Source: Candidatus Iainarchaeum sp. (GTDB taxonomy: Archaea > Iainarchaeota > Iainarchaeia > Iainarchaeales > 0-14-0-20-30-16). From it: a stretch of DNA of 30,833 bases. Positions 4,400-27,722 of this stretch are shown here, piece after piece (within the stretch, counting starts at the first letter, position 1; each line of letters opens with the position of its first letter). The stretch lies in assembly GCA_028710695.1 (NCBI GenBank), contig JAQTTP010000008.1, positions 1 through 30,833 on the forward strand, read 5' to 3'. The notes below the pieces were generated by a model. The model worked only from the letters and a program-made list of their open reading frames with translations. It was not told the origin of the DNA and did not search any database. Position numbers and translations under genes: made by a program.

Positions 4400-4405
4400 G
4401 TATAA

Positions 4406-9364: not shown

Positions 9365-9379
9365 TACACATAATGTGTA
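9365..9379. promoter_or_regulatory. palindrome, candidate operator of the toxin-antitoxin operon
   Basis: TACACAT-A-ATGTGTA is a perfect 7+7 palindrome, 26 nt upstream of the likely antitoxin ATG (9405). Confidence 0.4.
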
Positions 9380-9650
9380 TACGATATGTATTTGGGGTGT
9401 ATTTATGTCTGAAGTAATATCTGCAAGAGTATCATTAAATGATTATTCAAACAGGGTTTTGGGTGTAATAAAGGCAAAATATAACTTAAAAGATAAAAGT
9501 GAAGCTCTTAATAAGTTTATTGATATGTATGGAACAAATGAAGTTGAACCAGAATTGAAAGAAGAATATGTACAGAAAATTCTTGAATTAGAAAAAAATT
9601 ACAAAAGTAAGCCTATGTCTAAAAAAGAATTTGATAGTCTATTTGAGTGA
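9375..9650 (+). CDS. putative antitoxin (ribbon-helix-helix-like)
   Basis: The likely start is ATG 9405 (MSEVISARVSL...) with GGGGTG 6 nt upstream. A beta-strand followed by two helices (ISARVSL / YSNRVLGVIKAKY / KSEALNKFIDMYG). Its stop overlaps the start of the downstream RelE-like gene (TGATG). Confidence 0.55.
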   Translation: MYTICIWGVFMSEVISARVSLNDYSNRVLGVIKAKYNLKDKSEALNKFIDMYGTNEVEPELKEEYVQKILELEKNYKSKPMSKKEFDSLFE

Positions 9651-9931
9651 TGTGGATGCTGAATTACGATGTGCATCCCCATCTAAGAAAGATTCTTCAA
9701 AAATTAAAAACCAAAGATAAAATTCGGTTAAAGATAATAAAAAATAAAATGGATGAAATTATATCCTCAACTGAAGAAACAATAGAGAACTATAAACCTC
9801 TAAGATACAATCTAAAAAATCAAAAACGAGTACATATTGACAAAAGTTTTGTTTTAGTCTTTAGCTATGATAAAAAAGAAAAATTAATTACTTTTTTAGA
9901 TTTTGATCATCACGACAACATATATAAATAA
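9647..9931 (+). CDS. relE: RelE/ParE-superfamily toxin
   Basis: About 92 aa. L.KL.KKD...I.NKMDEI....E.YKPL.Y.LK...RVHIDKSFVLVFSYD.....I.FLDFDHHDNIYK fits the RelE pattern (..R..+G.YR+.Y.+d....+.i..+.HR...Y). Translationally coupled to the upstream small gene. Confidence 0.7.
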   Translation: MMWMLNYDVHPHLRKILQKLKTKDKIRLKIIKNKMDEIISSTEETIENYKPLRYNLKNQKRVHIDKSFVLVFSYDKKEKLITFLDFDHHDNIYK

Positions 9932-9938
9932 GCGCTTG

Positions 9939-10670
9939 CTAATTTCTTAAAAATCCATTATCTTCCAAGTATTTGTATGCAACATTTCTTGCTTCTTTAA
10001 GTTGATAAAGATTATGGGCATCGCTATTAACCATAATTAGTTTTGCTTTTTCTAGCATGGCGTTTAGAACTTTTAAATTAGACTTTTCATTTAATAAATC
10101 TGAACCATTTACTTCTAAAGGAACATTATGCTTGTTTGCAAACTCTGTAAGCCTCTCGATGTCTATATGCTCAGAAGGATCTGCTATTGCACTTTGGTGT
10201 TTGGGGCTAAGTTCTGGGTGGCCAATACATTTTATTCTTTCTTTGTTTTTAAGAATTGCATTTTCATATCCTTCAGTTAGTTTGCCATAGTCTCCTTTAT
10301 AGGTTTCTGGGTGTGCAGAAAGAATAAGCCAATCAATTTCTTTTGAATGTTGATTCCCGCATATGTTTCCCTTTTCATCTAACAAATCTGCCTCTAGCCC
10401 AAATCTGACTTCAACATTATTAATAACATTTTTGTATCTATCTTTGTTCCAAAATGGGCCACCAGCATAAATTCCTTTTTCTATTCTCCAACAATCAATT
10501 GTTGCTTGAGAGTGATCAGTAATAGTTATTTCTTTAAGGCCAAAGATTCCAGCATAGGTTACCATTTCATCTACAGAGTTCAGGCCATCAGAATAGTTTG
10601 ATGTGTGCATATGATTGTCTGATAGTCTTGAGTTAACGATTTTAAAAGCCATAATATATTTTGTTGGCAA
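9939..10670 (-). CDS. PHP-domain metal-dependent phosphoesterase
   Basis: DNHMHTSNYSDG..VDEM...A...GLKEITITDHS, then SAHPE, IGHPE and NSDAHN histidine motifs. The likely start is ATG 10652 (MAFKIV...) rather than TTG 10670. Confidence 0.65.
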   Translation of the reverse strand: MPTKYIMAFKIVNSRLSDNHMHTSNYSDGLNSVDEMVTYAGIFGLKEITITDHSQATIDCWRIEKGIYAGGPFWNKDRYKNVINNVEVRFGLEADLLDEKGNICGNQHSKEIDWLILSAHPETYKGDYGKLTEGYENAILKNKERIKCIGHPELSPKHQSAIADPSEHIDIERLTEFANKHNVPLEVNGSDLLNEKSNLKVLNAMLEKAKLIMVNSDAHNLYQLKEARNVAYKYLEDNGFLRN

Positions 10671-10726
10671 TAGTTATTTATTTGTTTAAGTGATAATTTT
10701 ACTTATCAGCAGAGTTTGGGGATGTT

Positions 10727-11851
10727 ATGGTAAATAAAGTTTTTAGTTGGGCTGTTGTAGCCGTGTTAATTATAGTAATAGTTGTGTTGGTAGTTGTGTT
10801 TACTGGTGGGAATAGCGAAAAAGAAGTTATTAAGATTGGTGTTGTTGGGCCTTTGACTGGTGATATTGCTCAATATGGTTTATCTTACAACGCAGCAGTA
10901 GAGTTGGCGGCAGAAAAAGCAAATTATGAAATAGATGGAAAGAAAGTAGAATTTATAGTTGAAGATGGAAAATGTAATGGCACTGATGCAACAACAGCAT
11001 TTAACAAATTAATACATATTGATCAAGTAGATTTTATTATTGGTGGTTTTTGTAGTTCTGAGACCTTGGCTGGAATGCCAATTGCTGAGGCTTCAAAAAT
11101 TCTTACTTTGAGTCCAACATCAAGCAATCCAGGTTTAAAAAATGCTGGAGAATTTTTGGTTACTTTATATCCATTAGATGACTTTGAGGGCACTTTTGAT
11201 GCAGAATATGTGTATACTAAACTTGGTGCGAAAACAGTTGCCTTAATAGTAGAACAGAGCGATTGGCCCAAAGGAATTTCTGACGCATTCATAAAAAAAT
11301 ATGAAGAACTTGGGGGAAAAATTGTTGCAAAAGAATCCAATGAACAGAATGCCAAGGATTTAAAAATGCAATTGACTAAAATTGCAAGCCTAAACCCAGA
11401 TTTAATATATGTTGCACAATATACTGGCTCTTTAGCTAATTTACTTACTCAGAGGCAGGAACTAGGAATAACAATTCCTTTGATGGCACCGCAATTTATA
11501 GAAGATGGTCTAATAAAGACAGTTGGGTCTGCTGCGGAAGGAGTTTATGGATCTATAATTGATGTTCCAATAATGACTCAAGAAATGGAAATTGAAATAA
11601 AGGAACTTAGTGGGTTATCAATTCCAGAAAAAGTGTTTTCCTTGTTTGCCTATGATGCTTTTAACATTTTAAAGAAAACAATAGAAGACAAAAAAACACT
11701 TGATTCTACTGTGCTTAAAGATTATATGTTAACCCAAACTTATACAGGGTTAACTGGAAGCTACATTTTTGACAAGGACGGCGGAAACATTTCAGCAGCC
11801 TTTAAAGTAGAGAAAGTTGTGGATGGAATAAGAGTAACCCAACCACAATGA
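10727..11851 (+). CDS. ABC transporter substrate-binding protein 3 (LIV-binding-like)
   Basis: IKIGVVGPLTGDIAQYG..IDGKKVEFIVEDGKCNG..FNKLIHIDQVDFIIGGFCSSE. Colinear with SBP2 through to the end (..KVVDGIRVTQPQ versus ..KVVDGKLVAQSQ). Confidence 0.85.
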   Translation: MVNKVFSWAVVAVLIIVIVVLVVVFTGGNSEKEVIKIGVVGPLTGDIAQYGLSYNAAVELAAEKANYEIDGKKVEFIVEDGKCNGTDATTAFNKLIHIDQVDFIIGGFCSSETLAGMPIAEASKILTLSPTSSNPGLKNAGEFLVTLYPLDDFEGTFDAEYVYTKLGAKTVALIVEQSDWPKGISDAFIKKYEELGGKIVAKESNEQNAKDLKMQLTKIASLNPDLIYVAQYTGSLANLLTQRQELGITIPLMAPQFIEDGLIKTVGSAAEGVYGSIIDVPIMTQEMEIEIKELSGLSIPEKVFSLFAYDAFNILKKTIEDKKTLDSTVLKDYMLTQTYTGLTGSYIFDKDGGNISAAFKVEKVVDGIRVTQPQ

Positions 11852-11913
11852 TTTTTTTATTTCAACTCTTTAACCACAAACTTAAGTTTATATAACTATA
11901 TACCCTATTTTTT

Positions 11914-12798
11914 ATGGAAAATGGGGTAACTATGTTTAATTATCTTTTTACTGTGTTAGTGTTCTTCATTTACAACCTTTTAACTGCAGTAGCAGCTAAC
12001 TTGACTATCGGATATTTGGGTCTATTCAACTTGGGATTAATTGCATTTGTGGGAATAGGTGCTTACTCTTATGCCCTAGTAACAAAAGCGGGGCTGGGAT
12101 TCTGGCCTGCTGCCTTAGTGGCGATTGTGCTTCCTGGGCTTTTTGCTATTGCTTTGCAGCTTATAACAAAGAAGCTAAAAGGAGACTATTTTGGAATTGC
12201 TACTTTGGGGTTTACTTATGTTGTTTTTGCAATTCTAATCAATTCAGAGTTCTCAAATGGTGCTTTTGGGATTGCCGGTATTGCAAAACCCGAGATCTTT
12301 GGGTATGTGTTTAGAACCCCTGGGGAGTTCTTATTTTTCTCAACAATTGTGCTTGTAATTGTAATGCTAATAGTTTGGAAGCTTGTTAACTCGCGGTTCG
12401 GAAAACTGATGGAAGCTATAAGAGATGACGAAGTTTCTGTTAAGGTTCTTGGAAAAAATACAAACGCAGTAAAATACAAAGTTCTGTTCTTTGCAGGGGC
12501 AATCTGTGGATTAGCGGGTCTAATCTTTGCAAGTTTTATAACATTTATAGACCCTTATTCTTTCTTGCTCCAGCCTTTGATTGTAATTTTAACTATTGCT
12601 ATTCTTGGCGGGTTGGCATCTTTCTGGGGGCCTGTGCTTGGGGCAGCAATTATTACTTCTGTACCAGAGATTTTGAGATTTGTAGGGCTTCCATCTTCTA
12701 TTCTGGGGCCAGCAAGAATTCTGATTTATGCAATTATCTTAATCTTGGTTTTAATATATTGGCCTAAAGGCTTAATGGGCAGAATAAAGTATGATTAG
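11914..12798 (+). CDS. livM: branched-chain amino acid ABC transporter permease, LivM-type
   Basis: LTIGYLGLFNLGLIAFVGIGAYSYAL is the LivM signature region. About 8 TM segments. An alternative SD-led start exists at ATG 11932 (GGGGT upstream). Confidence 0.9.
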   Translation: MENGVTMFNYLFTVLVFFIYNLLTAVAANLTIGYLGLFNLGLIAFVGIGAYSYALVTKAGLGFWPAALVAIVLPGLFAIALQLITKKLKGDYFGIATLGFTYVVFAILINSEFSNGAFGIAGIAKPEIFGYVFRTPGEFLFFSTIVLVIVMLIVWKLVNSRFGKLMEAIRDDEVSVKVLGKNTNAVKYKVLFFAGAICGLAGLIFASFITFIDPYSFLLQPLIVILTIAILGGLASFWGPVLGAAIITSVPEILRFVGLPSSILGPARILIYAIILILVLIYWPKGLMGRIKYD

Positions 12799-13543
12799 TG
12801 GTGTTATGGAAAATATATTGCACACAAGAGGAGTAACAAAAGCATTTGGTGGAGTGAAAGCTCTGCATAATGTCTCCATTGATGTGCTAAGTGGGAAGAT
12901 AACTGCACTCATAGGCCCAAATGGAAGCGGGAAATCTACTCTTTTTGAAATTATATCTGGATTACAAAAGCAAGATCAAGGGAAGCTATATTTCAGAGAA
13001 AAAGAGTTTAGTAAGTTAAGCCCTTATAGAAGAGCAAATCAAGGGATTGCAAGGACTTTCCAGCAGGTCAGGTTGTTTAAGAATCTGGAACTGGCAGACC
13101 ATATAGAATTTGCGGTTGATAATGGGGATACAGGTTTTTTCAAGAATCTGTTTACAAGAACAAGACTTAGTGAGGATAAGCTTAGGGCAGCATTGGATAA
13201 GGTGGGCTTGGATAAGAGGGCAGATACTCAAGCACATAACTTGAGCTATGGCCAAAGAAAGCTTTTGGATTTGGCGGTTGCTTTGGCAAAGCCACATGAT
13301 CTTTTAATGTTGGATGAACCAGTAGCTGGAGTGACCCCTAAACTAAGAACCGAGATAAAACGGATCCTATTAGAAGAAAAGAAAGCCGGGAAGAGTATAT
13401 TGCTTATAGAGCACGATATGGATTTTGTTATGGGCATTGCAGATATAGTTTATGTATTGGGGCAAGGAGAAGTAATTGCAAAAGGAACTCCTAATCAAGT
13501 GAAGAAGAACAAAGCAGTGTTGGAAGCATATTTAGGTGAATAA
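12791..13543 (+). CDS. livG: ABC transporter ATP-binding protein, LivG-type
   Basis: Walker A GPNGSGKST, RTFQQVRLF, signature LSYGQRK, Walker B LLMLDEPVAG, and the LivG-type C-terminus ..VLEAYLGE. Overlaps the livM stop. Confidence 0.9.
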   Translation: MISGVMENILHTRGVTKAFGGVKALHNVSIDVLSGKITALIGPNGSGKSTLFEIISGLQKQDQGKLYFREKEFSKLSPYRRANQGIARTFQQVRLFKNLELADHIEFAVDNGDTGFFKNLFTRTRLSEDKLRAALDKVGLDKRADTQAHNLSYGQRKLLDLAVALAKPHDLLMLDEPVAGVTPKLRTEIKRILLEEKKAGKSILLIEHDMDFVMGIADIVYVLGQGEVIAKGTPNQVKKNKAVLEAYLGE

Positions 13544-14669
13544 TATGAATAAGTTATGGTCTTGGGGAATAGGGGCATTGGTAATTTTACTTGTTGTATT
13601 TTTGATTATTATCTCTTTTAGTCCTAAAGAAACAGGAATAATAAAAACGGGGGTAATTGCTCCTTTAACGGGAGTAAGGGCTGATGCAGGAGAATATATT
13701 TCTAATGCAATTGCTATTGCAAAGGAAGAACTTGATTCAAATAAAGACAAGAAATACAAACTAGAATTTGTCTTTGAGGATTCTCAATACAAACCCGATA
13801 TTGCAGTAACTGTGGCAAATAAATTACTTGATTATGACAATGTAAATTATATTATTGGTCCAAGCGGGTCTTCCGAAGTACTTGCCGTAGCCCCTATAAC
13901 AGAAGAACAGAAAAAAATACTTATGATTCCTGGTGCACAAACTCCAGAAATATCTGATGCTGGAGAATATATATTTAGGTTAATGCACAATAGTGCTCAG
14001 GAAGCACCAATATTTGCAAAATTTGTTGCAAAGAATATGAAAAGTGATACAATACATCTACTTGTAATTAACACCGCCTTTGGGTCAGGTTACCTAAAGT
14101 ATTTTGTTCCTGCTTTAGAAGCAGAGGGAAAAAAGGTAGGATTAATAGAATATTTTGAATCTTCAGAAATGGATTTTAAGCAGCCTCTTGCAAAAATTAA
14201 ATCTGAGAATCCAACAGATATTTTTCCAATGTCTACTGCTAAGCAATTTGGAACTATATTGGTTCAGGCAAAGGAGATTGATTTAAATGCTCAATTCTAT
14301 ATGGTTGGAACAGAAGGCCCAGATTTGGTTAAAATTGCTGGCTTTCTTGTCGAAGGGGTAAAATACCCTTATTCTTATGATGCTTTAAGTAGTGATGACA
14401 GTAAGGTAAAAGTTTTTTATAATAACTACTTAAACAAGTTTAAATCAGAGCCAGATACAATTGCAGCCAATACTTATGATGCAGTAATGTTACTAAGTAA
14501 CTGCTTCGAAAAATTTGGAGACAAAGTAGAAGAAGTAAAAACCTGCTTATACAATACAAAAAATTATTTTGGTGTAAGCGGAACATTTAGCATTGACTCG
14601 AAAGGGGACGCAGTAAAAAAAATAATAATTAAGACAGTTAAAGATGGAAAGTTTGTAAAATATGAGTGA
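13536..14669 (+). CDS. ABC transporter substrate-binding protein 4 (LIV-binding-like, divergent)
   Basis: IKTGVIAPLTGVRADAGE..KYKLEFVFEDSQYKPD..ANKLLDYDNVNYIIGPSGSSE. Overlaps the livG stop. The likely start is ATG 13545 after AGGTGA. Confidence 0.8.
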   Translation: MNNMNKLWSWGIGALVILLVVFLIIISFSPKETGIIKTGVIAPLTGVRADAGEYISNAIAIAKEELDSNKDKKYKLEFVFEDSQYKPDIAVTVANKLLDYDNVNYIIGPSGSSEVLAVAPITEEQKKILMIPGAQTPEISDAGEYIFRLMHNSAQEAPIFAKFVAKNMKSDTIHLLVINTAFGSGYLKYFVPALEAEGKKVGLIEYFESSEMDFKQPLAKIKSENPTDIFPMSTAKQFGTILVQAKEIDLNAQFYMVGTEGPDLVKIAGFLVEGVKYPYSYDALSSDDSKVKVFYNNYLNKFKSEPDTIAANTYDAVMLLSNCFEKFGDKVEEVKTCLYNTKNYFGVSGTFSIDSKGDAVKKIIIKTVKDGKFVKYE

Positions 14670-15396
14670 TTATATTATGGCTGTTGTTAAAGACCAAGGT
14701 AAGAAGTTTGGACTTGCAAAAAGTAAAGACTTTGATACTCTATACTTTAAGTATAACAAAAAGCTTTTGGGATTACTAGTTGATAAAATAAAAACAAAAA
14801 AACCATTAATTGCGGACTATGGTGGAGCGAACTCTATCTTAGGGAAAGAACTACTGAATTTATTGGATAAAAAAAAGATTGTGGCGAGTATTGATAATAT
14901 TGATTCTGATTCAAAAAAATTCATTAAAGTAAAAGGTATAAAAAACATAAAGGCGGATTTTCTGAAGCCTTTGGAAAAAGAAAAATATGACTTTGCAATG
15001 TCTAGGCATACTTTACACTATCTAAACAAAAAAGACCAAAGCAAATTTCTGGATAATGTTTATGCTAGCTTAAAGCCGAATGGATATTTCTTGTTGATTA
15101 TGTTTGTTAATTCAGAAGATGTACTTAGAAAAATAAAGATAAAGATTGAGGAATACCTAAAACATAAAAAGAACATTTATCGGCAGATGTTTAGTGATGA
15201 GAGTTTTTTGGATTTAGCAGAGAAGTCCAAATTTAAGGTGATAAAAACAAAGAAGGTTAATTATACAATTTCAATTAATGATTTTTATAAGAATAGATTT
15301 AATTTATCAAAAACACAAGTTAAAGAGATAGAAAAAACTATTTGCAAGAAACATAAAGAATCAATAGTGGCCGTATTGCTAAAGAAAGGTGAATAG
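14662..15396 (+). CDS. class I SAM-dependent methyltransferase-like protein
   Basis: Degenerate motif I IADYGGANSILG, then ASIDNIDSD, YDFAMSRHTLHYL and LKPNGYFLL. The ATG overlaps the SBP4 stop by 8 nt. Confidence 0.55.
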   Translation: MSDYIMAVVKDQGKKFGLAKSKDFDTLYFKYNKKLLGLLVDKIKTKKPLIADYGGANSILGKELLNLLDKKKIVASIDNIDSDSKKFIKVKGIKNIKADFLKPLEKEKYDFAMSRHTLHYLNKKDQSKFLDNVYASLKPNGYFLLIMFVNSEDVLRKIKIKIEEYLKHKKNIYRQMFSDESFLDLAEKSKFKVIKTKKVNYTISINDFYKNRFNLSKTQVKEIEKTICKKHKESIVAVLLKKGE

Positions 15397-15931
15397 AATG
15401 GTGATTAGGGAAATCGCCAAAGTATTGAGGTTAGATCCAAAATCCCGGTTAAAACGAAAAATAAAATCCCCCGAGGATGCAAAAATAGTTATTGAAACCT
15501 TAAAAGAAGAGATTGAAAAAAGAAAGAGAACTGTAGAATTTATGAAACAAAATGTTAAAATTGTTAAAGCAGGTAATAACACAAAAAGGTTTCAATTAGT
15601 TACCCCCGGGGGTAAAGTTGTCGCCAGTGTTAGTTGTAGCCACCTAAAGCAGGGGTTATGGGAAGGCCATGATTTATATGTTGGCTCTTATTATTTTTCT
15701 AAAGTTGAATATCGGCAGCTAGGTCTTGCAAAATTTTTGTTGGGCGCGTTAAGGGAATATTTAACAAAGAAAAATGCTACTGCCTTGCTTTTTAATGCAA
15801 AACCTGGCCTTGCAGAATTTTATGAGAAGTTGGGGGCAGTTAAAGATCAGAGTCGTAGTGAAGTGGTAGCATTTGGGCTAGTTCCAATGAAGTTTGTATT
15901 ATCGCCAGGAATAGAAGTAGGGGGGAAATAA
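15389..15931 (+). CDS. GNAT-family N-acetyltransferase with a basic helical N-terminal extension
   Basis: Motif A-like YRQLGLAKFLLGALREYL, followed by ..FNAKPGLAEFYEKLGA. The likely start is ATG 15398 after AAAGGTGA. The stop abuts the livF ATG. Confidence 0.6.
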   Translation: MNRMVIREIAKVLRLDPKSRLKRKIKSPEDAKIVIETLKEEIEKRKRTVEFMKQNVKIVKAGNNTKRFQLVTPGGKVVASVSCSHLKQGLWEGHDLYVGSYYFSKVEYRQLGLAKFLLGALREYLTKKNATALLFNAKPGLAEFYEKLGAVKDQSRSEVVAFGLVPMKFVLSPGIEVGGK

Positions 15932-16642
15932 ATGTTAAGTATACATAACCTTAATGCAGGATATGAAGAACTGAAGGTCCTGAAGAATGTTGATCTTGAG
16001 TTCCAAATGGGGGAATTTGTGTCTATAATTGGACCAAATGGAGCAGGAAAGTCCACTGTGTTGAAATCTATATTTAATATTGCTACCTTGGAAAAAGGGT
16101 CGAGCATAAAGTTCGAGGATAAAGAGCTTGTGGGTCTGAAGCCATATCAGCTGATATTTGAAGGTGTTGCATATGTTCCGCAAGGGAGAATAAACTTTGC
16201 AGATCTTACAGTAGAGGAAAACTTGCTTATTGGAAACTATTATCTAAAAGACAAAAAGGTTTCAGAACAGAATCTTGAAAAGGTATATAAATTCTTTCCA
16301 GAATTACACAAATTCAAGAAGAAGCTTTCGTATGCTTTGAGTGGCGGACAACAACAAATGCTTGCAATAGGGCGAGCAATGATGTTAGACCCTAAAGTGC
16401 TTTTGTTGGATGAGCCTTCTTTAGGATTAAGCCCCAAATTAATAAAAGAAACCTTTGCAAAAATAAAAGAAATTGCTGAATCAGGAGTACTAGTTTTAAT
16501 GGTTGAACAGAATGCAAAGAAAGCAATGGAATGTACAGACAAAACAGTTGTGCTTGAAGGTGGAGAATTGAAATTGTTTGGGAAAAGTAAAGACCTATTA
16601 AAAGATCCTAAATTAGGAAAAGTGTTTTTTGGCGGGGAATAA
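15932..16642 (+). CDS. livF: ABC transporter ATP-binding protein, LivF-type
   Basis: Walker A GPNGAGKST, AYVPQGRINFADLTVEENL, signature LSGGQQQ, Walker B LLLLDEPSLGL. Confidence 0.9.
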   Translation: MLSIHNLNAGYEELKVLKNVDLEFQMGEFVSIIGPNGAGKSTVLKSIFNIATLEKGSSIKFEDKELVGLKPYQLIFEGVAYVPQGRINFADLTVEENLLIGNYYLKDKKVSEQNLEKVYKFFPELHKFKKKLSYALSGGQQQMLAIGRAMMLDPKVLLLDEPSLGLSPKLIKETFAKIKEIAESGVLVLMVEQNAKKAMECTDKTVVLEGGELKLFGKSKDLLKDPKLGKVFFGGE

Positions 16643-16702
16643 GCAAGAATAAGGTAAGAGTAACAGGTCTATTTCCCTATAAGAATAAAAGAAAAAAGAG
16701 GG

Positions 16703-16718
16703 GCTCCTAATTAGGAGC
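16703..16718. terminator. perfect 16-nt palindrome between convergent genes (bidirectional terminator candidate)
   Basis: GCTCCTAATTAGGAGC, preceded by an A-rich run. It contains the last codons and stop of the minus-strand esterase gene. Confidence 0.45.
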
Positions 16719-19391
16719 TGCGTAATTAGTTGTGCTTTCTACTATTCCATTACTAACAGTTAGAACTTGTGCTTCTCCATAAGAGTTTGAAGTAAGAACT
16801 AAAAGCTTTCCATCTGCCCTTATTTCTAAATCAGAAGCATCTAAACCATTTGTAGGAATATTGTATTCAGTTCCGCTGTAAACATCTAGGATTAAAGCAT
16901 CACTACCATCTAATAAAGCATAGCCAACTTCTAAATCAGCAAGAGAATACCCTTCTGGTATAGGGAAAGTATATTCATTTGTTTTTGCTAAGCTAGAGTT
17001 TAGTTCCCATACTTTGAATTCTGTGTTATTTGTAAGAAGAACAGCAACCTTATCAGTATGGTTGGTTACTAATCTTAATAGTTTCCAAGAACTATCTGGA
17101 AGAGCTATTGTTGTGCTTCCGATGTTCTGTGCTTTGTTGTTGAACTTTATTATAACTGCCTTGTTTTGTAAGTTTTGATATAGGATCAAAGGATTACTTC
17201 CAAGTAAGGACATGTAAACAGGGTATCTGTTAGTTGTTGAAAACAATGATTTAATTAGCTTGTTTCCACCATATGCATCTTGTCTATAAAGTCCTAAGCT
17301 TCCATTTGGGCCAGTCCATAATCCCCACCAAAGAGAAGGGATTTTTTGTTCAACATCTATTGAAAGGATATTATATGTCGGGTAATCAAAGAAACTTTGG
17401 TTTATTATTCCGTTTGAACCGTAGTCAAAACTTACAGACCATTTACCGCTATTTTTCCATACTACTCCGCTGTAATCTAATAAACTTGCTAAGAACTTTG
17501 CTTCCCATGAAGAAACAATTTTTACAATACATTCTGAACTCTCACAACCAAATTCACAAGTCTTTACTAAAATCTCATTCTTGTTGCTTTGGCAGCTTGA
17601 GTTGAATAGCCCTGGGTTTAAACAACCAAAGGAAGTTATCTCTTTGTAAACATTTCCGCTTTTACAATAATTTGCGCTTTCTGATGGTGCACCACAATCT
17701 AAATCTAGAGTACAGGAAGGCACAAAACAAGAACCCTCATAACAAGAGTTAGAGCAAGTTTCTTGTAAAACATTTTCTGTTTTTACAACACAATTTGCTA
17801 ATAGAGTTCCTGGATTTTCACAAGTTGGAATATCTTTTGTCTTTAAAACATTATTTTCTGAGCAAAAGTTGCTTGATGTCCAGCTCTCAGTTCCACAATC
17901 AGTATTTGAGAAACATTTTGGAACAACACAAGCACCAGCTTCACAGCCGTACTCACAATCTTCTACTAAGGTATCAACAAGATTATTTGAACAAGAGGAA
18001 GTCCATTTTCCGGCATCATTACAGGAAAACATTTGCTTTTTCTTGTAAACATCATTGTTTTGACAATAATTTTCTCCAACAAGAGCATCTGCCCCACAAT
18101 CTGTGTTTAGGAAGCAAGAAATTTTCTTACACTCTCCGCTAAAACACTCTTGGGTTGGAGAACAACTTTCCATTAAAATATTTCCTGTGTTTTTTGAACA
18201 AGATGAACTTGTTGTTCCAGGATTATTACATGTAAATGTTTCTTTTTGTTTGAATACATTATTTTCAGAACAGAAATTATTACCTATAAATGAATCTACT
18301 CCACAGTCAGTATTAGCAAAACAAGCTATATCTTTACATTGTGAAGATTCACATAATTGACTAGAAGAACACTGCTGAACTAAGTTAGTAACTGTTTCTT
18401 TTTTACAGTATGATGCAGTTGTTCCTGGATTAACACAGGTATTTACTAAGGTGTCTTTCTTCAAAGCATTAGTTGAACAATAATTTGCTGAATCTGTGTT
18501 TGTTCCACATTCTAGATTTGTAGAACAGGCAATCTGCTGTGGAAGTGGTGTAGAATTATTAATAAAGAAAGTCCAAATTGACTCATTCTTTGTTTTGTCA
18601 TAGTTGTGGCCCATTCCAGTTAAAGAAATTAATTGATTTGGGTGGCCTTTGTTTGTTAATTCTGTTTGTAATTTTTGATCCCATGAATAAGGAACTACTG
18701 AATCATCAGTAGAGTGTATCAAAAGTCCGGGAACTTTTAATGCTGCATTTGTTTTTGCATTAGTTGCAGCTATTGGGAAATAAAACATATTATAATAGTT
18801 TACTAATCCCCCTGAATGCCCTGCAAAAGCAGTAACCTTGCTTGGCAAACACATTGAGGCATAATAACTAAATAAAGCACCATATGAGTGGCCCATAAAG
18901 TAAACGTGATCTGCAGATACTTTGTAATCTGTACTTAATTTTGTTAGGATGTTGCTAACAAAATCTAAATCTTGGGAGTCACATTTGTTTGATGCTTGGA
19001 TATGACCTATGTCCCATCGAATATATTTTTGGTTTCCTGGGAAACCAGCTACATCATATTCGGGAATGTTTACCCATAAAAACGAAAAATTCTTTGGGGG
19101 TAAGTTCTTTAGTGAATCAGGGAAAACAGCAATAAAGCCCTTGCTATCAGCTAAGCCTTTTATATTGTAATAATCACTTGCTGCAAAAGTGGCATCGCTT
19201 CCCATTCCGTGGAACATATAAACCAGCGGATAGGTTTTTGTTGCGTCAAATCCTGTTGGCAAATAAACCAAATATGTTCTTTCAATACCCCTTATTGTTG
19301 TTTTCTGGGTTAAGAGACTTCCTGCAAAAGTAAAAGATGCAAGAATTAAAATTAAAAGAATTGTAATAACTATCTTTGAAAAGTTGTTCAC
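16707..19391 (-). CDS. secreted alpha/beta-hydrolase (PHB-depolymerase/feruloyl-esterase-like) fused to five Cys-rich modules and an unknown C-terminal domain
   Basis: GTG start with GGGGTGA upstream. Signal peptide. RTYLVYLP..YPLVYMFHGMG, nucleophile elbow GHSYG, HSTDDSVVP and GMGHNY (Ser/Asp/His order). Five ~65-aa repeats follow, then ~270 aa with no recognised motif. Confidence 0.7.
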   Translation of the reverse strand: MNNFSKIVITILLILILASFTFAGSLLTQKTTIRGIERTYLVYLPTGFDATKTYPLVYMFHGMGSDATFAASDYYNIKGLADSKGFIAVFPDSLKNLPPKNFSFLWVNIPEYDVAGFPGNQKYIRWDIGHIQASNKCDSQDLDFVSNILTKLSTDYKVSADHVYFMGHSYGALFSYYASMCLPSKVTAFAGHSGGLVNYYNMFYFPIAATNAKTNAALKVPGLLIHSTDDSVVPYSWDQKLQTELTNKGHPNQLISLTGMGHNYDKTKNESIWTFFINNSTPLPQQIACSTNLECGTNTDSANYCSTNALKKDTLVNTCVNPGTTASYCKKETVTNLVQQCSSSQLCESSQCKDIACFANTDCGVDSFIGNNFCSENNVFKQKETFTCNNPGTTSSSCSKNTGNILMESCSPTQECFSGECKKISCFLNTDCGADALVGENYCQNNDVYKKKQMFSCNDAGKWTSSCSNNLVDTLVEDCEYGCEAGACVVPKCFSNTDCGTESWTSSNFCSENNVLKTKDIPTCENPGTLLANCVVKTENVLQETCSNSCYEGSCFVPSCTLDLDCGAPSESANYCKSGNVYKEITSFGCLNPGLFNSSCQSNKNEILVKTCEFGCESSECIVKIVSSWEAKFLASLLDYSGVVWKNSGKWSVSFDYGSNGIINQSFFDYPTYNILSIDVEQKIPSLWWGLWTGPNGSLGLYRQDAYGGNKLIKSLFSTTNRYPVYMSLLGSNPLILYQNLQNKAVIIKFNNKAQNIGSTTIALPDSSWKLLRLVTNHTDKVAVLLTNNTEFKVWELNSSLAKTNEYTFPIPEGYSLADLEVGYALLDGSDALILDVYSGTEYNIPTNGLDASDLEIRADGKLLVLTSNSYGEAQVLTVSNGIVESTTNYAAPN
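17529..18527 (-). repeat. five tandem Cys-rich coding modules (aa 289-621 of the esterase)
   Basis: Each unit reads C-x3-(D/E)CG-x~10-C-x~13-C-x-NPG-x5-C-x~12-C-x3-5-C-x3-C, for example ACFANTDCGVDSFIGNNFCSENNVFKQKETFTCNNPGTTSSSCSKNTGNILMESCSPTQECFSGEC. Confidence 0.75.
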
Positions 19392-21986: not shown

Positions 21987-22463
21987 ATGCCATTTCCTGC
22001 ATTACATGTTTTATTTAATATTGGTGCTTTCTATCCTTTCAGAAAATATTTTGGAAAGTACTGGCTTGTATTTGCTGGACTTTCTGGATTAGTAATGGAT
22101 TTAGATTTTGCATTACAATTTATTCTTGGGCCGGATTCATTTTTTGCACATGGGTATTTCTTCCATACAATTGGGTTTGTGCTGTGTTTATTAGCAATTT
22201 CTTTGGTTGTGTTTTTGAAAAACAAAGAATATGGAAAATATGGACTTATTATTGCAGGCGGAGCATTGTTACACTTACTTTTAGATTATATCCTTGGGGG
22301 CGGAAAATATTATTTGGCATTATTCTACCCCTTCTATTCTGGCGGATTCCACTTACACCTTTTGATGTCTTTTAAAGAAAACGACATTTTTGGAATTCTG
22401 GATGCAATAGCAATATTTATTTCTTTGGGTGTTTATTTTATAATCTTAAAAACTAGGAAATAG
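21987..22463 (+). CDS. YdjM/DUF457-like membrane-bound metal-dependent hydrolase
   Basis: 158 aa with 4-5 TM segments. GLVMDLDFA....FFAHGYFFHTIG resembles the ..PD.D....HRG.THS signature. SD TGGGGT upstream. Ends 7 nt before the next gene. Confidence 0.5.
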   Translation: MPFPALHVLFNIGAFYPFRKYFGKYWLVFAGLSGLVMDLDFALQFILGPDSFFAHGYFFHTIGFVLCLLAISLVVFLKNKEYGKYGLIIAGGALLHLLLDYILGGGKYYLALFYPFYSGGFHLHLLMSFKENDIFGILDAIAIFISLGVYFIILKTRK

Positions 22464-22470: not shown

Positions 22471-24669
22471 ATGAACAAATATTTTATTGTAATTATTTTT
22501 TGTGTTCTTTTTGCTGCTTGCTCATACTCTTATACCTGGTCATTAACCCAAGTTGAGGCAATTGGAACTGGGACTGCAGGGTATCCTTATCTATTAAAAA
22601 TGGATGTAACGTCTGATGGTATTCCAAATCTAATTTATAGAAATAATTCAGGTTCTAATTTAAGACACGCATACTATTCGAGTGGAAGTTGGACTATAGC
22701 GAATATTGGGGCTTATAACCCACAATATATTTGGGCCTGTATGGACCCAAGTGACAATTTGCATGTTTCTTATTATGACCTTACAAGTGCAAACAGGGAT
22801 ATGAGGTATCTAAAATGGACTGATGCAACATCTTCGTGGCAAGCAAGCCCAACCATTGTGGATCAAAGCCACACAGTTATTGGACAATACAGCTCAATAG
22901 CCTCAGATAGCAGTGGAAACTTAGGGCTGGCTTATTTGGATTATTACAGTACCTCCGCCGTAGATGACTTGTATTATGCTTACTATAATGGCTCTTGGGC
23001 CACAACTGGAATTGATGTAAATGCCTCTGAAAAGGATGGATATAACACGGCAATTGTTTTTGATAGCTCTGGGTTTGCCCATATAGTTTATTGTGATAAC
23101 ACAAATTATGATTTGAAATATGCAACAAATAGTTCTGGATCTTGGGTGATATCAAGGGTTGACACAAGCGATGTTTGTTGGGGTAATGGTGTGGGTTTAG
23201 CAATAGATACTTCCGATAATCTTTATGCTTGTTATTGGGATAGGGGGGGCAATTTTACTCAAGACCTGAAGTTTGCATATTATAATGGAAGTTGGAGTAC
23301 CGAGACTGCAGCATCTACTGACGTTGTTGGAAAATACTGTTCAATAGACGTAAACTCAAGTGGCGTACCGCACATATCACATTTTAACGACACTGATAAC
23401 ACTTTAGAAATGGCATACAAAGTTGAATCTACTTGGTATACAGAGGTAGTAGACACTAATTCAAATTCTGGAATATATGGTACTAGTCTTAAAATAGATG
23501 CAGATAATAATGTGCACATTGGATATTTAATAAACCCTGGAACAAGTGGATTTGTGGGGTATGCTTTTGCTGCGGGACCTGTAGTGCCTGTAGCAAGCTA
23601 TTTTGATGTAAATTATACCACTCCTACTTCTGGCAACTATAATACTGAGGTCCAAGATGTTGAATTTTATAGCACTACTTCCGATCCGTCTACTGGCCTA
23701 AATCTAAAAATTTATGTTTCTAGCAGCCAAGGCGGATTTGAAACAGAATTAGTGGATTTAAATGTATTAGATTATGCGAATATATCTGGAATGTCTTGTG
23801 TAGATTCGAACTTCCAAGATTCAACAAGATGTGTTTATGATTTGAATGTGGTGGGCGTAACTGATGGAAATTATTATATTGACTTAAACTTGTATAATAC
23901 AACAACATCTAGTACTGATTCAAGTACGGGGACTTTAAGAATTGATCATACCGCACCAACTATTTCATCCGTAAGTATGAATTCTGAGAGTCAACTAACC
24001 GGAAGTAATTATGCTTTAACTGCAACAATATCTGACGCGGGATCTGGGCTTGACGGGAACGAAATTTATATTTGTTGGAGCCCAAGTTCAAGTGAAGTAG
24101 CATGTACTTCTGGAAGTTGGGATTGTCATTTAGGAGATATGGTAAACACAGCGGGAAATAGTTATAGCGCGACTATTTCAGCAAGTGTAAAAGATACATC
24201 CGGAGTTTGGAATTGTAAAATTTATGCAACAGATGTTTTGGGATTATCAAATAGTGGAACAGATACTGAAACAATGCAAACTACTACTGGAATTACTGTG
24301 GACGCTGCGTCAGCAATCTATTCTGGAAATCCCAACACTACTGAGAATGATATTCTAACAGATCAGGCCCACAATTATTTAGTGGTTACACATAATGGAA
24401 ATTCATCAATAAATGTTGATGTTAACGGAAACCCGTTTACATCTGGGGGAAATATTATTACTCCAAATCTTCAAAAATTTAAAAATAGTGATGATTACGG
24501 CTCTGCAGTATCTATGACTGGTTCATCTCAAAGACTTATAACTACTTGGGGGTCAGGGAGCTACCCTACAAGTGATAATTTTAGTATGTGGTTTTGGCTA
24601 GATATTCCTGTTGGGGCATATCACGGAGATTATAGTAGTTCTATAGTTTTTACAAGTGAGGGGTCTTAG
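22471..24669 (+). CDS. large surface protein A: lipobox-like signal, 7-repeat beta-propeller, Ig-like modules, C-terminal domain shared with protein B
   Basis: MNKYFIVIIFCVLFAAC. Seven ~45-aa repeats (D.SG..H+.Y.D....L.YA...GSW). IDHTAPTISSV and SDAGSGLDG are Ig-like module starts. The last 126 aa are paralogous to the end of B. Confidence 0.75.
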   Translation: MNKYFIVIIFCVLFAACSYSYTWSLTQVEAIGTGTAGYPYLLKMDVTSDGIPNLIYRNNSGSNLRHAYYSSGSWTIANIGAYNPQYIWACMDPSDNLHVSYYDLTSANRDMRYLKWTDATSSWQASPTIVDQSHTVIGQYSSIASDSSGNLGLAYLDYYSTSAVDDLYYAYYNGSWATTGIDVNASEKDGYNTAIVFDSSGFAHIVYCDNTNYDLKYATNSSGSWVISRVDTSDVCWGNGVGLAIDTSDNLYACYWDRGGNFTQDLKFAYYNGSWSTETAASTDVVGKYCSIDVNSSGVPHISHFNDTDNTLEMAYKVESTWYTEVVDTNSNSGIYGTSLKIDADNNVHIGYLINPGTSGFVGYAFAAGPVVPVASYFDVNYTTPTSGNYNTEVQDVEFYSTTSDPSTGLNLKIYVSSSQGGFETELVDLNVLDYANISGMSCVDSNFQDSTRCVYDLNVVGVTDGNYYIDLNLYNTTTSSTDSSTGTLRIDHTAPTISSVSMNSESQLTGSNYALTATISDAGSGLDGNEIYICWSPSSSEVACTSGSWDCHLGDMVNTAGNSYSATISASVKDTSGVWNCKIYATDVLGLSNSGTDTETMQTTTGITVDAASAIYSGNPNTTENDILTDQAHNYLVVTHNGNSSINVDVNGNPFTSGGNIITPNLQKFKNSDDYGSAVSMTGSSQRLITTWGSGSYPTSDNFSMWFWLDIPVGAYHGDYSSSIVFTSEGS

Positions 24670-24762
24670 TGATTTTTTGCTTGTGAAGATGCAAGGGTTT
24701 ATAAATTATGTTTGTGTTTTATATATACAAATCTTATCACATTTGGATTCAAGGGAGATTGA

Positions 24763-25728
24763 TTGTTTATGATTTCAAATAAAGGCTTTTTGAGAATAGG
24801 AAAATTCTTTTTAATATTTATTTTCGCGGGGCTGTTTATTTTTTTGTTAAATTTTTCTAGTTCTGCTGATGTATCTGTAACTGCAACAGTTGGTAATGCA
24901 AGCCCAATATTGCAAGATGTGAATATTTGTTCAACTAGTTGTGAAAAATATAAAGCACTTGCCCCTGGGACAGCATTCACAGTTCAAGTTATAGCAGGGG
25001 ACCCAAATGGATTAAGTGATATAAATTGGGGTGCAACAGAAATAGAAATCTATACTGTGGCAGATACAAACGCAAGTTCAGCAAGTTGGGATCATGTGAT
25101 TTTGTCAATGGCAGATGGAACCTTGACTCAAACAGATTCTGCAGATGGTTGTACTGCGGAAATAGCTATTACGGATACAAACTGTTTTACTATAGAAGCA
25201 GGGGATTGGACAGTAAAATTTTTAGAGGCTGGGGCAGAAATTTATGTTAAAATTTATGATAAATATGCAGTTCCGGCATCAAGTGATTTAGAAATTGCTT
25301 ATGTTGCGGATACTCTTGGAATCTTAGTTTCTGGAACAACAGGTATGTCATTAGATACGACTGCCGGGACTTTTTCAGGGAGCGCAAATACAACAAATAA
25401 TGCCTTTGACTCTGGACAAACAGTTAATGCTTATATAATTGCTACACATAGCGGAAACCAGAATTTAGAATTAAAAATGGATGCAAGTAGTTTAACTAGT
25501 GGTGGTAACACAATTGCTGATGGCAATATAAGTTGGTATTTAAGTAATGATGCAGTAAGTTCAACACCATTTACTGGTGCAGCAGATACTATCCATACTG
25601 CTTGGGGACGAGGAACAAGTCCAACATCAAGTACAGATAATGTTTATACTTGGTTAGATATTCCTATAAGCACACCTACCGGGGATTATACGGGAACTTT
25701 CTCAGTAACTACTGAAGCATCATCATAA
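24763..25728 (+). CDS. secreted protein B: paralog of the C-terminal half of A (Ig-like module + shared C-terminal domain)
   Basis: The likely start is ATG 24769, with GGGAGA ~10 nt upstream. Sec-type signal ending ..FSSSA|DVSVTATV. The C-terminus ..HTAWGRGTSPTSSTDNVYTWLDIPISTPTGDYTGTFSVTTE aligns with ..TTWGSGSYPTSDNFSMWFWLDIPVGAYHGDYSSSIVFTSE in A. Confidence 0.75.
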   Translation: MFMISNKGFLRIGKFFLIFIFAGLFIFLLNFSSSADVSVTATVGNASPILQDVNICSTSCEKYKALAPGTAFTVQVIAGDPNGLSDINWGATEIEIYTVADTNASSASWDHVILSMADGTLTQTDSADGCTAEIAITDTNCFTIEAGDWTVKFLEAGAEIYVKIYDKYAVPASSDLEIAYVADTLGILVSGTTGMSLDTTAGTFSGSANTTNNAFDSGQTVNAYIIATHSGNQNLELKMDASSLTSGGNTIADGNISWYLSNDAVSSTPFTGAADTIHTAWGRGTSPTSSTDNVYTWLDIPISTPTGDYTGTFSVTTEASS

Positions 25729-25755: not shown

Positions 25756-26412
25756 GTGAAAGGTATGAATTGTATGAAAGGAAGTATTTATTTTCTGATT
25801 AGTGTCTTTATCTTATCCTCTTTATCCCTTAGTATTTCCTGCCTTGCTCTTGCGGGCGGGTACGATTTAAATGCAATAAAAGGCCAAGAATATTACTTTG
25901 ATTTTACAGTATACAATAATGATGCGGATTCAGCAACTGTTTGTGATCCTGGAATGTATTCTATGTCTTTAAGTGTTGTGGATGGAGATATTGACGACTT
26001 ATTTGACTATAAAATTTCTGAAAATGATTTGGTTTTAAATGACACAGACACAAAAAAGGTAATGGTTTCTATTACCCCCCTTGTAGACTCCGGACAGTAT
26101 GAAATTTTAGTGACTGTTAAAAGGGCTGATGTTGGTTTGGGGCAGGGTGGAACAAAAATATTTAACTCTACTGTGGGCAAGATAAAGGTAAATTTAGGCG
26201 GAGAAACAAAGAAAACATCATATGATGAGGTTCCTGAATGGTATGCCTATGAACAACAGCAAGAAGATCTAAATGCGGATCAAAATGCCCCTTTAGCAAA
26301 TAATCCTGAAAACAATAGCTCAAGTGATGGTAATACTTTGTTATATGTATTAGTAATAATTATGGCGGCAGTAATACTGTTTATGGCATTTATTTTGTAC
26401 AAAAGACGGTAA
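25756..26412 (+). CDS. surface protein C: signal peptide, single beta-sandwich-like ectodomain, acidic/Gln linker, C-terminal TM anchor
   Basis: Candidate starts are GTG 25756, ATG 25765 and ATG 25774. Ectodomain YYFDFTVYNND...VMVSITPLVDSGQYEILVTVK (CARDB/NEW3-like pattern). C-terminus LLYVLVIIMAAVILFMAFILYKRR. Confidence 0.7.
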   Translation: MKGMNCMKGSIYFLISVFILSSLSLSISCLALAGGYDLNAIKGQEYYFDFTVYNNDADSATVCDPGMYSMSLSVVDGDIDDLFDYKISENDLVLNDTDTKKVMVSITPLVDSGQYEILVTVKRADVGLGQGGTKIFNSTVGKIKVNLGGETKKTSYDEVPEWYAYEQQQEDLNADQNAPLANNPENNSSSDGNTLLYVLVIIMAAVILFMAFILYKRR

Positions 26413-26444: not shown

Positions 26445-27722
26445 ATGTCTAGAAATTGTTTATTTTTTATAGTAGTTTTATTTTTAACATTAGTGATTTC
26501 TCCTTTTGTGTATTCAGAACTTGTAACAGTAACTGCACAAGTTGTAAGTTCAAACGCAGAACCATCAGTGCCTTTGCTTATTGATGAAGGAGATAAAACA
26601 AGCTATGGGACAGTTACATTAGATTGGCTGGAATCTACTGATGACGAGAATGACTCAATTTTATATTTCTTAAGGGCCGGAACTACTTCTGGAGGAAACA
26701 GTACTTTGGATGTAAATACTCCAGATATAAACTATTCCTTTTCCTTAGCCACGAATGGAACTTATTATTGGTCTGTGAAGGCCTGTGATAATAATGATTC
26801 TACTTGGGGACATTGTAGTGACTGGAGTATAGAAGACACGTTTGTTATGAATTATACTGCCCCTGTTGATGATGAAGATCTTGGCGGCGGAGGGGGCTCA
26901 ACAACAAAAACAGAGCCAATTGACACCAACGAGCTAGAAGTAAATAGCTGTGAGATTTGTAGCAAGGGACAAAAATGTGATGGAAAATATATTTATTCTG
27001 ATGGCTTAGTGTGCTGTTTTAATGGTTGTAGTGTGAGTTCCCAAATCACTAATGAACCAATAGGCGAAAACTATGATGAAGTTATAATTGATAACTTTGT
27101 CCTTGATATGAAACAGGTTTATAATAAAGAAGACATGACCTTTGAAGATAATGAGATTGGGCTGAGGGATTATGTTCTAGATACAAATAAAATAAAAATA
27201 ACTTTGAAGGTAAAAACAACAAAGCTTCTTTCAAACTTTAAATTTGAGGGATATAGAATCCATTTTGATTACTACCTTAGCTCGCCAGATGAAACTATAG
27301 AAAAACCATTTATTCTTTTAGAATATGATCCTGCACTTATTTCTAACGCAAAATTAATACAAAGCGAGCAGGATTTCTTTGTTGTAAATGATTCCACAGT
27401 AATTGGAATAATACCAGAAAAATTAACTAGTCAGGACTATTTATTTTCTTTTTATGTTGATTTGAAAGAAAAGCCAAATGATAATTTGTGGACAAATTTG
27501 AAGAAGCCACTAGTTTACATAAAGAACAAGGATCTTTGTGCAAGTGTAAAGTGTGATGATTTTGATGCCTGTACAAAAGATATTTGTGAAGAGGGGAAAT
27601 GTGTTCACATAAACACTTGTGAGCAAAAGAAACCATCTGCAAGCAGCTATGTTTTATATTATATAATTGGTGCTCTGCTTTTAATGATCTTGGTGGCAGT
27701 CTACCTATTGAAGAAACATTAA
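26445..27722 (+). CDS. surface protein D: signal peptide, FN3-like domain, Gly5 linker, Cys-rich modules, C-terminal TM anchor
   Basis: The signal ends ..FVYS|ELVTVTAQV. FN3-like TVTLDWLES..YYWSVKACDN..CSDWS. A GGGGGS linker. Cys-rich segments CEICSKGQKCDG..CCFNGC and CASVKCDDFDACTKDICEEGKCVHINTC. C-terminus YVLYYIIGALLLMILVAVYLLKKH. Confidence 0.7.
   Translation: MSRNCLFFIVVLFLTLVISPFVYSELVTVTAQVVSSNAEPSVPLLIDEGDKTSYGTVTLDWLESTDDENDSILYFLRAGTTSGGNSTLDVNTPDINYSFSLATNGTYYWSVKACDNNDSTWGHCSDWSIEDTFVMNYTAPVDDEDLGGGGGSTTKTEPIDTNELEVNSCEICSKGQKCDGKYIYSDGLVCCFNGCSVSSQITNEPIGENYDEVIIDNFVLDMKQVYNKEDMTFEDNEIGLRDYVLDTNKIKITLKVKTTKLLSNFKFEGYRIHFDYYLSSPDETIEKPFILLEYDPALISNAKLIQSEQDFFVVNDSTVIGIIPEKLTSQDYLFSFYVDLKEKPNDNLWTNLKKPLVYIKNKDLCASVKCDDFDACTKDICEEGKCVHINTCEQKKPSASSYVLYYIIGALLLMILVAVYLLKKH

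Follow-up and report, generated by a model that had tools for sequence, protein, structure and literature searches.

The DNA analyzed here is a 30,833-nucleotide stretch from Candidatus Iainarchaeum sp. (assembly GCA_028710695.1, contig JAQTTP010000008.1, forward strand; hereafter, the window). Within it, four co-directional genes, termed A, B, C and D, lie downstream of a gene for a YdjM-family membrane protein. Proteins A and B end in the same domain, here called X. Judging from our sequence comparisons, X is a genuine, hitherto undescribed C-terminal domain family, the function of which is tied to a membrane-anchored partner, encoded in the window by gene C. The strongest evidence for this reading of X is its genomic context. 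Beyond this, we consider that A-B-C-D may encode a membrane-anchored chaperone-pilin fiber, analogous to WxL-type or chaperone-usher-type pili, and give this reading a probability of roughly 0.45. It draws on the architecture of the proteins, on conservation and on a strand that the monomer model leaves unplaced, and it is from these that we infer strand exchange.

Similarity between A and B and the X domain family

The original prediction, made from the letters of the window, held that the C-terminal domains of A (24289-24666) and B (25342-25725) align at about one-third identity. Indeed, BLASTP finds 44 identities over 127 positions (35%, with 58% positives and a single gap; E=2e-24), and the blocks that had been listed as shared, namely SG..NTT.N, THxGN, LTSGGNxI, WGxGxxPTS and WLDIP....GDY....T.E, are all present and are kept in the alignments of relatives. 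When the full-length proteins are compared by BLAST, a single significant segment is obtained (residues 585-732 of A and 180-320 of B, E=4e-22). By these alignments, the A/B similarity is real and far beyond chance. An X profile searched against the 0.9-Mb genome from which the window comes finds exactly two copies, at 24283-24666 and 25336-25722.

While the shared C-terminal domain of about 125 residues that had been proposed is real, its extent was set too small, as an immunoglobulin (Ig)-like domain is shared as well. An hhalign comparison of 16 A-type segments preceding X with 29 B-type N-terminal domains, which are Ig-like, shows homology between the latter and the roughly 115 residues found upstream of X in A-type proteins (probability 99.4%, E=4e-21). 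A (~23935-24666) and B (~24898-25725) thus share a two-domain cassette, and the end of A repeats in full the mature architecture of B, an Ig-like domain followed by X.

X has no model in Pfam or NCBIfam, and full-length B finds only ten homologues among 5.8 billion clustered proteins. The X profile, on the other hand, matches 351 clusters at E<=1e-3 and 54 at E<=1e-10 (50%-identity clusters, 1.84 billion representatives); the domain is a real and recurrent family. In 146 of 148 representatives, X ends no more than 20 residues from the C-terminus, and in 129 the distance is at most 5 residues. The proteins carrying it range from 230 residues or fewer up to 1293 and come in three architectures. 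In the smallest, the X-only proteins of ~160-180 aa, X comes after a signal peptide and a short conserved strand. B-type proteins (~270-330 aa) combine an Ig-like domain with X. In the largest (700-1300 aa), unrelated N-terminal heads precede the same Ig-like domain and X at the end. Carriers are DPANN-like archaea and metagenome-assembled genomes (MAGs) of Dehalococcoidia/Chloroflexota; the latter are the named sources of the X-only form, and one contig binned as Pirellulales appears as well. In the window's phylum, X is found in 14 of 215 species genomes, usually in one large and one small gene that are adjacent.

Exceptions to the C-terminal position are rare. In P0095 (614 aa), X lies inside the protein, in P0111 (287 aa) it is found at the N-terminus, and P0053 (1236 aa) contains 14 partial matched stretches to X. 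These cases recall the N-terminal WxL exception described for E. faecium.

A membrane-anchored partner encoded after X

At some 20 loci, a gene for a beta-rich protein of ~200-280 aa with a signal peptide, a C-terminal transmembrane (TM) helix and a basic tail comes directly after the last X gene. These loci belong to the window's phylum, in which several families are represented, to another archaeon and to MAGs of Dehalococcoidia/Chloroflexota. Only three or four loci, some of which are truncated, do not have a C-type neighbor. The claim that a C-terminally TM-anchored beta-sandwich partner (gene C) stands beside the domain has thus gained support from some 20 loci, which are also comparable operons that hold further members of the family.

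Homologues of C itself come directly after the last X gene in loci L001/2, L010, L004 and L027-L032. In close relatives (L001/L002, L010), the whole order YdjM-A-B-C-D-fibrillarin-Nop is retained. In the distant locus L004, an A-type protein of 1071 aa is accompanied by two paralogues of B, a homologue of C (33% identity, E=5e-17) and an FN3-rich protein of 1490 aa that ends in a TM helix. The order of X gene or genes, C-type gene and D-type gene recurs in other families of the window's phylum (L027-L032, L034), and behind C, an orthologue or analogue of D is encoded in L002, L010, L004, L028-L032 and L034.

A second and highly conserved C-type family, C(A6), is found directly after an X-only gene in Dehalococcoidia/Chloroflexota and in one other archaeon (n=11: L007, L011, L013, L014, L033, L038-L041, L043 and L044), and a large X-ending gene often lies upstream of this pair. 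Where complete, C(A6) proteins are 236-262 aa long and comprise a signal peptide, a beta-rich ectodomain, an acidic linker, a TM helix and a basic tail. The C(A6) profile matched nothing among PDB sequences. As far as sequences tell, the two C families share architecture and a co-linear pattern, their homology being unproven.

Two of the loci deserve separate mention. In L033 (positions 5938-6510; genome G018, of the window's phylum), a Chloroflexota-type C(A6) accompanies the X-only gene instead of the DPANN-type C. Its open reading frame (ORF) of 190 aa has no TM helix and may be truncated or frameshifted. The occurrence of C(A6) in this phylum suggests the transfer of whole clusters between bacteria and archaea. 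In L004 (positions 1-16879 of a 47.5-kb Logan contig, SRR14872662), A-B-B-C-D stands amid numerous short ORFs that have no annotation, a methyltransferase gene and genes for further giant secreted proteins (1490 aa and more than 1699 aa); this could be the context of a virus or an integrated element rather than of a chromosome.

A conserved strand at the mature N-terminus of B and D

The most conserved stretch of the B family is DVSVTATVGNASP, in which T40, V41 and P46 are invariant and V35, T38, A39, G42 and N43 are nearly so. In the AlphaFold2 (AF2) model of the B monomer, this stretch is unstructured (pLDDT<50, residues 30-42). Being highly conserved yet unplaced in the monomer, it behaves like segments that act between molecules. 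X-only proteins likewise open with an invariant, alternating A-x-V-x-V strand, and in 10 of 11 clusters the D-type protein starts with h-x-h-x-[AG]-x-h...N-x-x-P, followed by an FN3-like or B-like domain. Within one cluster, B and D agree in the small central residues of the strand, which are TA/TA for the window's genus, VG/VG for L031/L032 and SG/SG for L034. At the mature N-terminus of A-type proteins, the motif is never present. In the genome from which the window comes, the motif stands behind an N-terminal hydrophobic leader in four ORFs, of which only B and D look really secreted; it should be noted that this test was post hoc, with the pattern defined from B and D.

Fold and distant relatives of X

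The AF2 model of the B copy of X, based on a 41-sequence alignment, has eleven strands (pLDDT 87.7, pTM 0.77) and predicts that X is a beta-sandwich. Comparing this model to the PDB with Foldseek revealed no close relative, with all TM-scores being below 0.45. The top matches were to the N-terminal beta-sandwich of GH123 (5l7u/5l7v; E=2.7e-3, probability 0.99, ~20% identity, TM 0.39), followed by jelly-roll folds, CBM32-like/discoidin sandwiches, the PapD-like domain of CEP192 and the Pyrodictium cannula subunit. Among viral structures, Foldseek returned nothing below E=0.02, and a viral receptor-binding role for X is set aside, despite the many small ORFs that surround the L004 cluster. The full-length B model was also tried but gave only generic two-Ig-domain matches (antibodies, T-cell receptors, tapasin) and was set aside as uninformative.

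The X sequence profile, when searched against PDB sequences, also matched the GH123 N-domain, co-linearly over two stretches (E=1.4e-5). This is the only solved family with a co-linear profile match (PF22680; PDB 5L7R/5L7U/5L7V, 5FQG), and both have the final hairpin ...W/I-x-I-P-x-G-x-x-A-G-x-Y-T-G-T-h-T-h in common. The Pfam model (Glyco_hydro_123_N_2) scores the B domain at 18.2 bits, relative to a cut-off of 27, and one relative, P0116, barely passes with 27.4 bits. The N-domain of GH123 forms a complete structural sandwich and docks intramolecularly on DUF4091 (PMC11087588); it is described as a structural domain and is not a known carbohydrate-binding module. Whereas that domain is N-terminal, complete and packed on the catalytic barrel, X is C-terminal and enzyme-free and has another gene context; no GH123 catalytic domain comes after X, which terminates the protein.

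In a Pfam scan of 42 X members at E<=0.1, Glyco_hydro_123_N_2 was matched weakly by 13 members, DUF4402 weakly by 9, WxLIP_PGBD by 2, SCPU by 1 and WxL (PF13731) by none. For DUF4402 (PF14352), the best match among X relatives has E=2.4e-5 and most of the model is covered, the best per-protein score being 24.6 bits relative to a cut-off of 25.2; the single SCPU (PF05229) match has E=0.004. The scan of A-D was thresholded at E<=1, and at this level A and B match neither SCPU, DUF4402 nor WxL, and the source genome as a whole has no DUF4402 or SCPU match. In control genomes, the DUF4402 model gave nothing above its cut-off. A literature search found no publication on DUF4402.

Of the likeness to SCPU/Csu and DUF4402 pilins that the original prediction had drawn, there remain sub-threshold matches in distant X-only relatives; A and B show none, and no match reaches the cut-off. 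The pilin-like fold was not recovered, since the best matches by both sequence and fold are to the complete, non-pilin N-domain of GH123, which is half of what the prediction itself had named as speaking against it.

As to WxL, the dual motif of that domain, i.e., two Trp-x-Leu motifs on adjacent C-terminal strands (PMC9772566), is absent from X. There is one Trp, in W-L-D-I-P, with Leu at +1 and not at +2, and the last X strand, GDYTGTFSVTTEA, has no WxL. To the eye, the terminal hairpin of X-only proteins (...P-G-x4-6-Y-x-[ST]-T-[IF]-T-[WY]) resembles the last WxL strand of ElrD, a WxL pilin. As a positive control, ElrD, translated from the sequence printed in a preprint (10.64898/2026.10.17.759780), was recognized as WxL by the same library (E=1.7e-58).

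A possible surface fiber and its alternatives

WxL clusters of Bacillota, such as the Elr cluster of Enterococcus faecalis, include a DUF916-DUF3324 protein with a C-terminal TM helix (PMC10599100, PMC9772566) and were reported in October 2026, on the basis of cryo-electron microscopy and biochemistry, to build a donor-strand-exchange pilus (10.64898/2026.10.17.759780). According to the same preprint, ElrD is both donor and acceptor, ElrA is an acceptor only, ElrE serves as a chaperone anchored in the membrane and ElrB is the base, with a donor strand, no acceptor domain, an LPxTG motif, a TM helix and a basic tail; the WxL domain is C-terminal in 2,867 of 2,871 adhesins; and the system is confined to Bacillota (10.64898/2026.10.17.759780). 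As that survey detected the system by Pfam thresholds for WxL and WxLIP, it would have missed one made of unmodelled domains. The preprint thus makes the two analogies of the original prediction, pilin and WxL, converge.

The A/B/C/D layout maps one-to-one onto ElrA/ElrD/ElrE/ElrB, and the X-only, Ig+X and head+Ig+X architectures correspond to small WxL proteins, large WxL proteins and tip adhesins. In both systems, the small protein is essentially the C-terminal domain with an N-terminal strand, while in the large one, which lacks the strand, a variable N-terminal head and an Ig-like spacer precede the same domain. Small and large secreted proteins alike have the domain at their very C-terminus (146/148 for X), a TM-anchored beta-sandwich protein is encoded beside the pilins, and a further protein has the strand, lacks the acceptor domain and ends in a TM helix and a basic tail. 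The systems differ in that the WxL, WxLIP_PGBD and WxLIP_HBD models do not match A-D, with no sequence relationship; in that C has one ectodomain of ~125-165 aa, where the Elr chaperone has DUF916 and DUF3324; in that D has no LPxTG, so that anchoring would rest on the membrane helix alone; and in that the hosts are here archaea and Chloroflexota. The C-type neighbor is therefore of the same architecture as the Elr chaperone and not of the same family, and the WxL parallel drawn in the original prediction applies to architecture (the C-terminal domain in small and large proteins, the TM-anchored partner) and not to sequence.

Chaperone-usher pili offer a looser comparison. Their tip adhesins likewise consist of two domains, a head for binding and a pilin-like domain at the C-terminus, and their small subunits carry an amphipathic strand at the N-terminus. 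X relatives give weak DUF4402/SCPU matches. In the present cluster, however, there is neither a PapD-like periplasmic chaperone nor an usher (A-D have no PapD_N or usher matches in Pfam), and no outer membrane, as the hosts are archaea, as seen from the adjacent fibrillarin and Nop genes. Furthermore, all of the DUF4402/SCPU matches lie below curated cut-offs and the fold search does not place Csu/SCPU near X. The threads of Sulfolobus, the TasA-like bundling pili of Pyrobaculum and the cannulae of Pyrodictium are built of Sec-secreted archaeal beta-sandwich or jelly-roll subunits that polymerize by strand donation, but these have no sequence similarity or convincing fold similarity to X.

Should the fiber reading be correct, X, placed after an Ig-like spacer, would be the C-terminal attachment or polymerization module of secreted proteins, and A-B-C-D would build a thin surface fiber or, failing that, a complex displayed on the surface. 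The shaft would be made of B, with its DVSVTATVGNASP strand inserting into X of the preceding subunit. A would be the distal tip adhesin, with a variable binding head on the Ig+X cassette; as it has no N-terminal strand, it could only accept. C would serve as a membrane-anchored chaperone or assembly platform. D, a donor-only, membrane-anchored base opening with ELVTVTAQVVSSNAEP, would plug the last subunit and tether the fiber to a cell without peptidoglycan and without a sortase. That strands insert and subunits polymerize, that C acts as a chaperone and that D acts as an anchor is what we infer. We put forward, more tentatively, that the cluster could be a third version of the chaperone-pilin principle, independent or anciently diverged, with X as acceptor, hVxVxAxV..NxxP as donor, a single-domain tethered chaperone and a TM-anchored, donor-only subunit that replaces sortase anchoring.

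Several observations weigh against the fiber and should be considered. Homology between the two C families could not be demonstrated, with hhalign giving a probability of 1.7% for 4+4 sequences and of 24% when 10+9 sequences were compared in global mode. C matches neither DUF916/DUF3324 (PF06030, PF11797) nor PapD in Pfam, and appears to have one ectodomain rather than two. As the only suggestive solved relatives of X are the complete, non-pilin sandwiches of GH123, the fold evidence leans away from a classical pilin. The top 50 matches of the Foldseek search of the PDB contain no Csu/SCPU pilin, no TasA and no archaeal thread or bundling pilin; the first type 1 pilus subunit comes at rank 45 (E 0.72), and the TM-score of the Pyrodictium cannula subunit (9h8b) is only 0.43. 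ElrD compared to X profiles gave an hhalign probability of 0.1%, i.e., no homology was detected. On its own, X is modelled with confidence as a folded monomer (AF2, pLDDT as given above). The N-x-x-P strand could simply be the first strand, with a hinge, of an Ig-like domain; in A, the equivalent segment is the last strand of the preceding domain. Finally, the D-like protein of L004 does not have the motif, and the B/D co-variation rests on few independent lineages.

An alternative is a static docking platform, in which X binds the C ectodomain one-to-one and A, with its variable head, and B, as a small accessory protein, hang on the membrane without forming a polymer, with D being an independent anchored surface protein. 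Such an arrangement would resemble the older WxL/WxLIP platform model or dockerin-cohesin pairs. It would account for the strictly C-terminal position of X under variable heads, for the conserved X-then-C gene order and for the confident folding of X alone, and the nearest solved relative, the GH123 N-domain, does dock, intramolecularly, on DUF4091 (PMC11087588). A static platform, however, gives no role to the extreme conservation of the unstructured N-terminal strand of B, and leaves unexplained both the same strand on D-type proteins with different downstream domains and the existence of small X-only proteins. Moreover, the same model has just been revised towards polymerization for WxL (10.64898/2026.10.17.759780). 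We thus regard it as unlikely, if the most serious of the alternatives to a fiber.

The GH123 matches also raise another option, namely that X is a CBM-like module that binds glycans of the S-layer or of a host cell, thereby attaching proteins to the producer or to the host, with C and D being unrelated neighbors. The best PDB profile match and the best Foldseek matches are indeed to GH123 N-domains, 13 of the 42 members match Glyco_hydro_123_N_2 weakly and CBM32 and discoidin sandwiches follow as weaker fold matches. The carriers also fit, as the DPANN-like archaea and Dehalococcoidia include lineages without peptidoglycan, the envelopes of which are proteinaceous and glycosylated. On the other hand, the GH123 N-domain is described as structural rather than as binding carbohydrate, all fold matches stay below TM 0.45 and no aromatic-platform binding motif is evident in X. 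The X-then-C synteny in some 20 loci from two domains of life goes beyond what chance adjacency can explain, and we accordingly consider a glycan-binding role rather improbable.

That X is a divergent SCPU/DUF4402 or WxL member by common descent, and hence a homologous pilin, is very improbable, for although 9 of the 42 members have sub-threshold DUF4402 matches over most of the model, one has the SCPU match and the X-only terminal hairpin resembles that of ElrD by eye, every member stays below the DUF4402 cut-off, A and B have no match, ElrD is not recognized by X profiles, no Csu/SCPU pilin is found in the Foldseek top 50, a PapD-type chaperone, an usher and (in the hosts) an outer membrane are all missing, and so is the dual WxL motif.

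Chaperone-assisted donor-strand exchange has long been regarded as a Gram-negative mechanism. If the fiber reading is true, the chaperone-pilin principle would be far more widespread, reaching archaea and Chloroflexota, and the present cluster would be its first archaeal version with a dedicated membrane-anchored chaperone. In small-genome archaea, such a fiber could act as the organelle keeping the cell attached to its host. A-D are a concrete, testable candidate for a surface fiber or adhesin in small-genome DPANN-like archaea, in which host attachment is poorly understood. Whatever the mechanism, the analysis adds a new C-terminal domain family of 351 clusters and two linked partner families, all annotated as hypothetical proteins.

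Gene inventory and neighboring genes

The coordinates of the cluster are collected in Table 1. The G+C content of the window is ~33%. The source genome is 86% complete, and its size of 0.9 Mb suggests a DPANN-like lineage. Genes for fibrillarin and a Nop-domain protein adjoin the cluster. The YdjM gene is kept in close relatives only (present in L010, absent from the L004 and L007 clusters), such that its product is not part of the widely conserved core.

Table 1 Features of the A-B-C-D cluster in the window.
Feature	Position	Strand	Basis and remarks
YdjM-family membrane protein	21987..22463	+	Pfam PF04307, E=1.4e-8; directly upstream of A
Gene A, 732 aa	22471..24669	+	ORF; N-terminal signal or lipobox-like leader, repeat-rich head, Ig-like domains, C-terminal X
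Ig-like domain of A, before X	23935..24282	+	hhalign homology to the N-terminal domain of B
X domain, A copy, residues 605-732	24283..24666	+	Profile match E=2e-50; reaches the protein C-terminus
Gene B, 319 aa	24769..25728	+	ORF from ATG 24769; signal peptide, conserved N-terminal strand, Ig-like domain, X
Mature N-terminal strand of B, DVSVTATVGNASP	24868..24906	+	Candidate donor strand; conservation and AF2 disorder
Ig-like domain of B	24907..25335	+	Conserved Cys pairs and DPNG..D motif (alignment); AF2 strands 47-164
X domain, B copy, residues 190-319	25336..25725	+	Profile match E=2e-55; predicted 11-strand beta-sandwich (AF2)
Gene C, 218 aa	25756..26412	+	ORF; signal peptide, beta-rich ectodomain of ~125 aa, acidic/polar linker, TM helix, KRR tail
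Gene D, 425 aa	26445..27722	+	ORF; signal peptide, B-like N-terminal strand, FN3-like domain, Cys-rich region, TM helix, KKH tail
Mature N-terminal strand of D, ELVTVTAQVVSSNAEP	26517..26564	+	Resembles the strand of B

A search of A-D against Pfam and NCBIfam gave nothing significant, and neither A nor C matched any PDB sequence. Orthologues of A are syntenic in L001 and L010. The residues of A that precede the Ig+X cassette (22471-23934, the N-terminal two-thirds) form a repeat-rich head with a recurring YY..G.W pattern, for which there is likewise no Pfam, NCBIfam or PDB sequence match, and the leader of A ends in FAAC, resembling a lipobox. Gene B has an alternative TTG start at 24763; the database form (P0005) is the 319-aa protein starting from ATG. 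The C-terminal TM helices of C and D are located at ~26338-26400 and ~27648-27710, respectively, and D has neither an X domain nor an LPxTG motif. In D-type proteins, a short Cys-rich segment precedes the membrane anchor (27500-27640 in the window; L031:4460-5845) and gives weak matches to Dicty_CTDC repeats, with E=0.009 for the window and E=5.8e-5 for L031.

The Chloroflexota clusters hold additional genes. In L007 (3728-4240), L038 (1543-2097), L041 (1164-1745) and L042 (2989-3516), the gene for the large X protein and that for the X-only protein are separated by one for an extra conserved secreted protein of ~170-190 aa; this extra protein has no X and no family match, and in three of the four cases opens with a DAEVEVLPG-type start. 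Downstream of C(A6), secreted proteins with a YPLEPDD-type start are found in L007 (5837-7186), L041 (3271-4647), L043 (6093-7253 and 7302-9986) and L044 (3677-5749), directly after C(A6) in the first three of these loci. They give weak matches to squalene-cyclase-like (SQHop_cyclase_C) repeats and may be a further component of the Chloroflexota version. Lastly, a 196-aa protein in L007 (7372-7962) has a BACON_2/PapD-like or MSP-like Ig domain, a C-terminal TM helix and an Arg-rich tail. Its gene adjoins DUF4430-CbiQ-ABC transporter genes, and membrane-tethered PapD-like folds thus exist in the same genomes.

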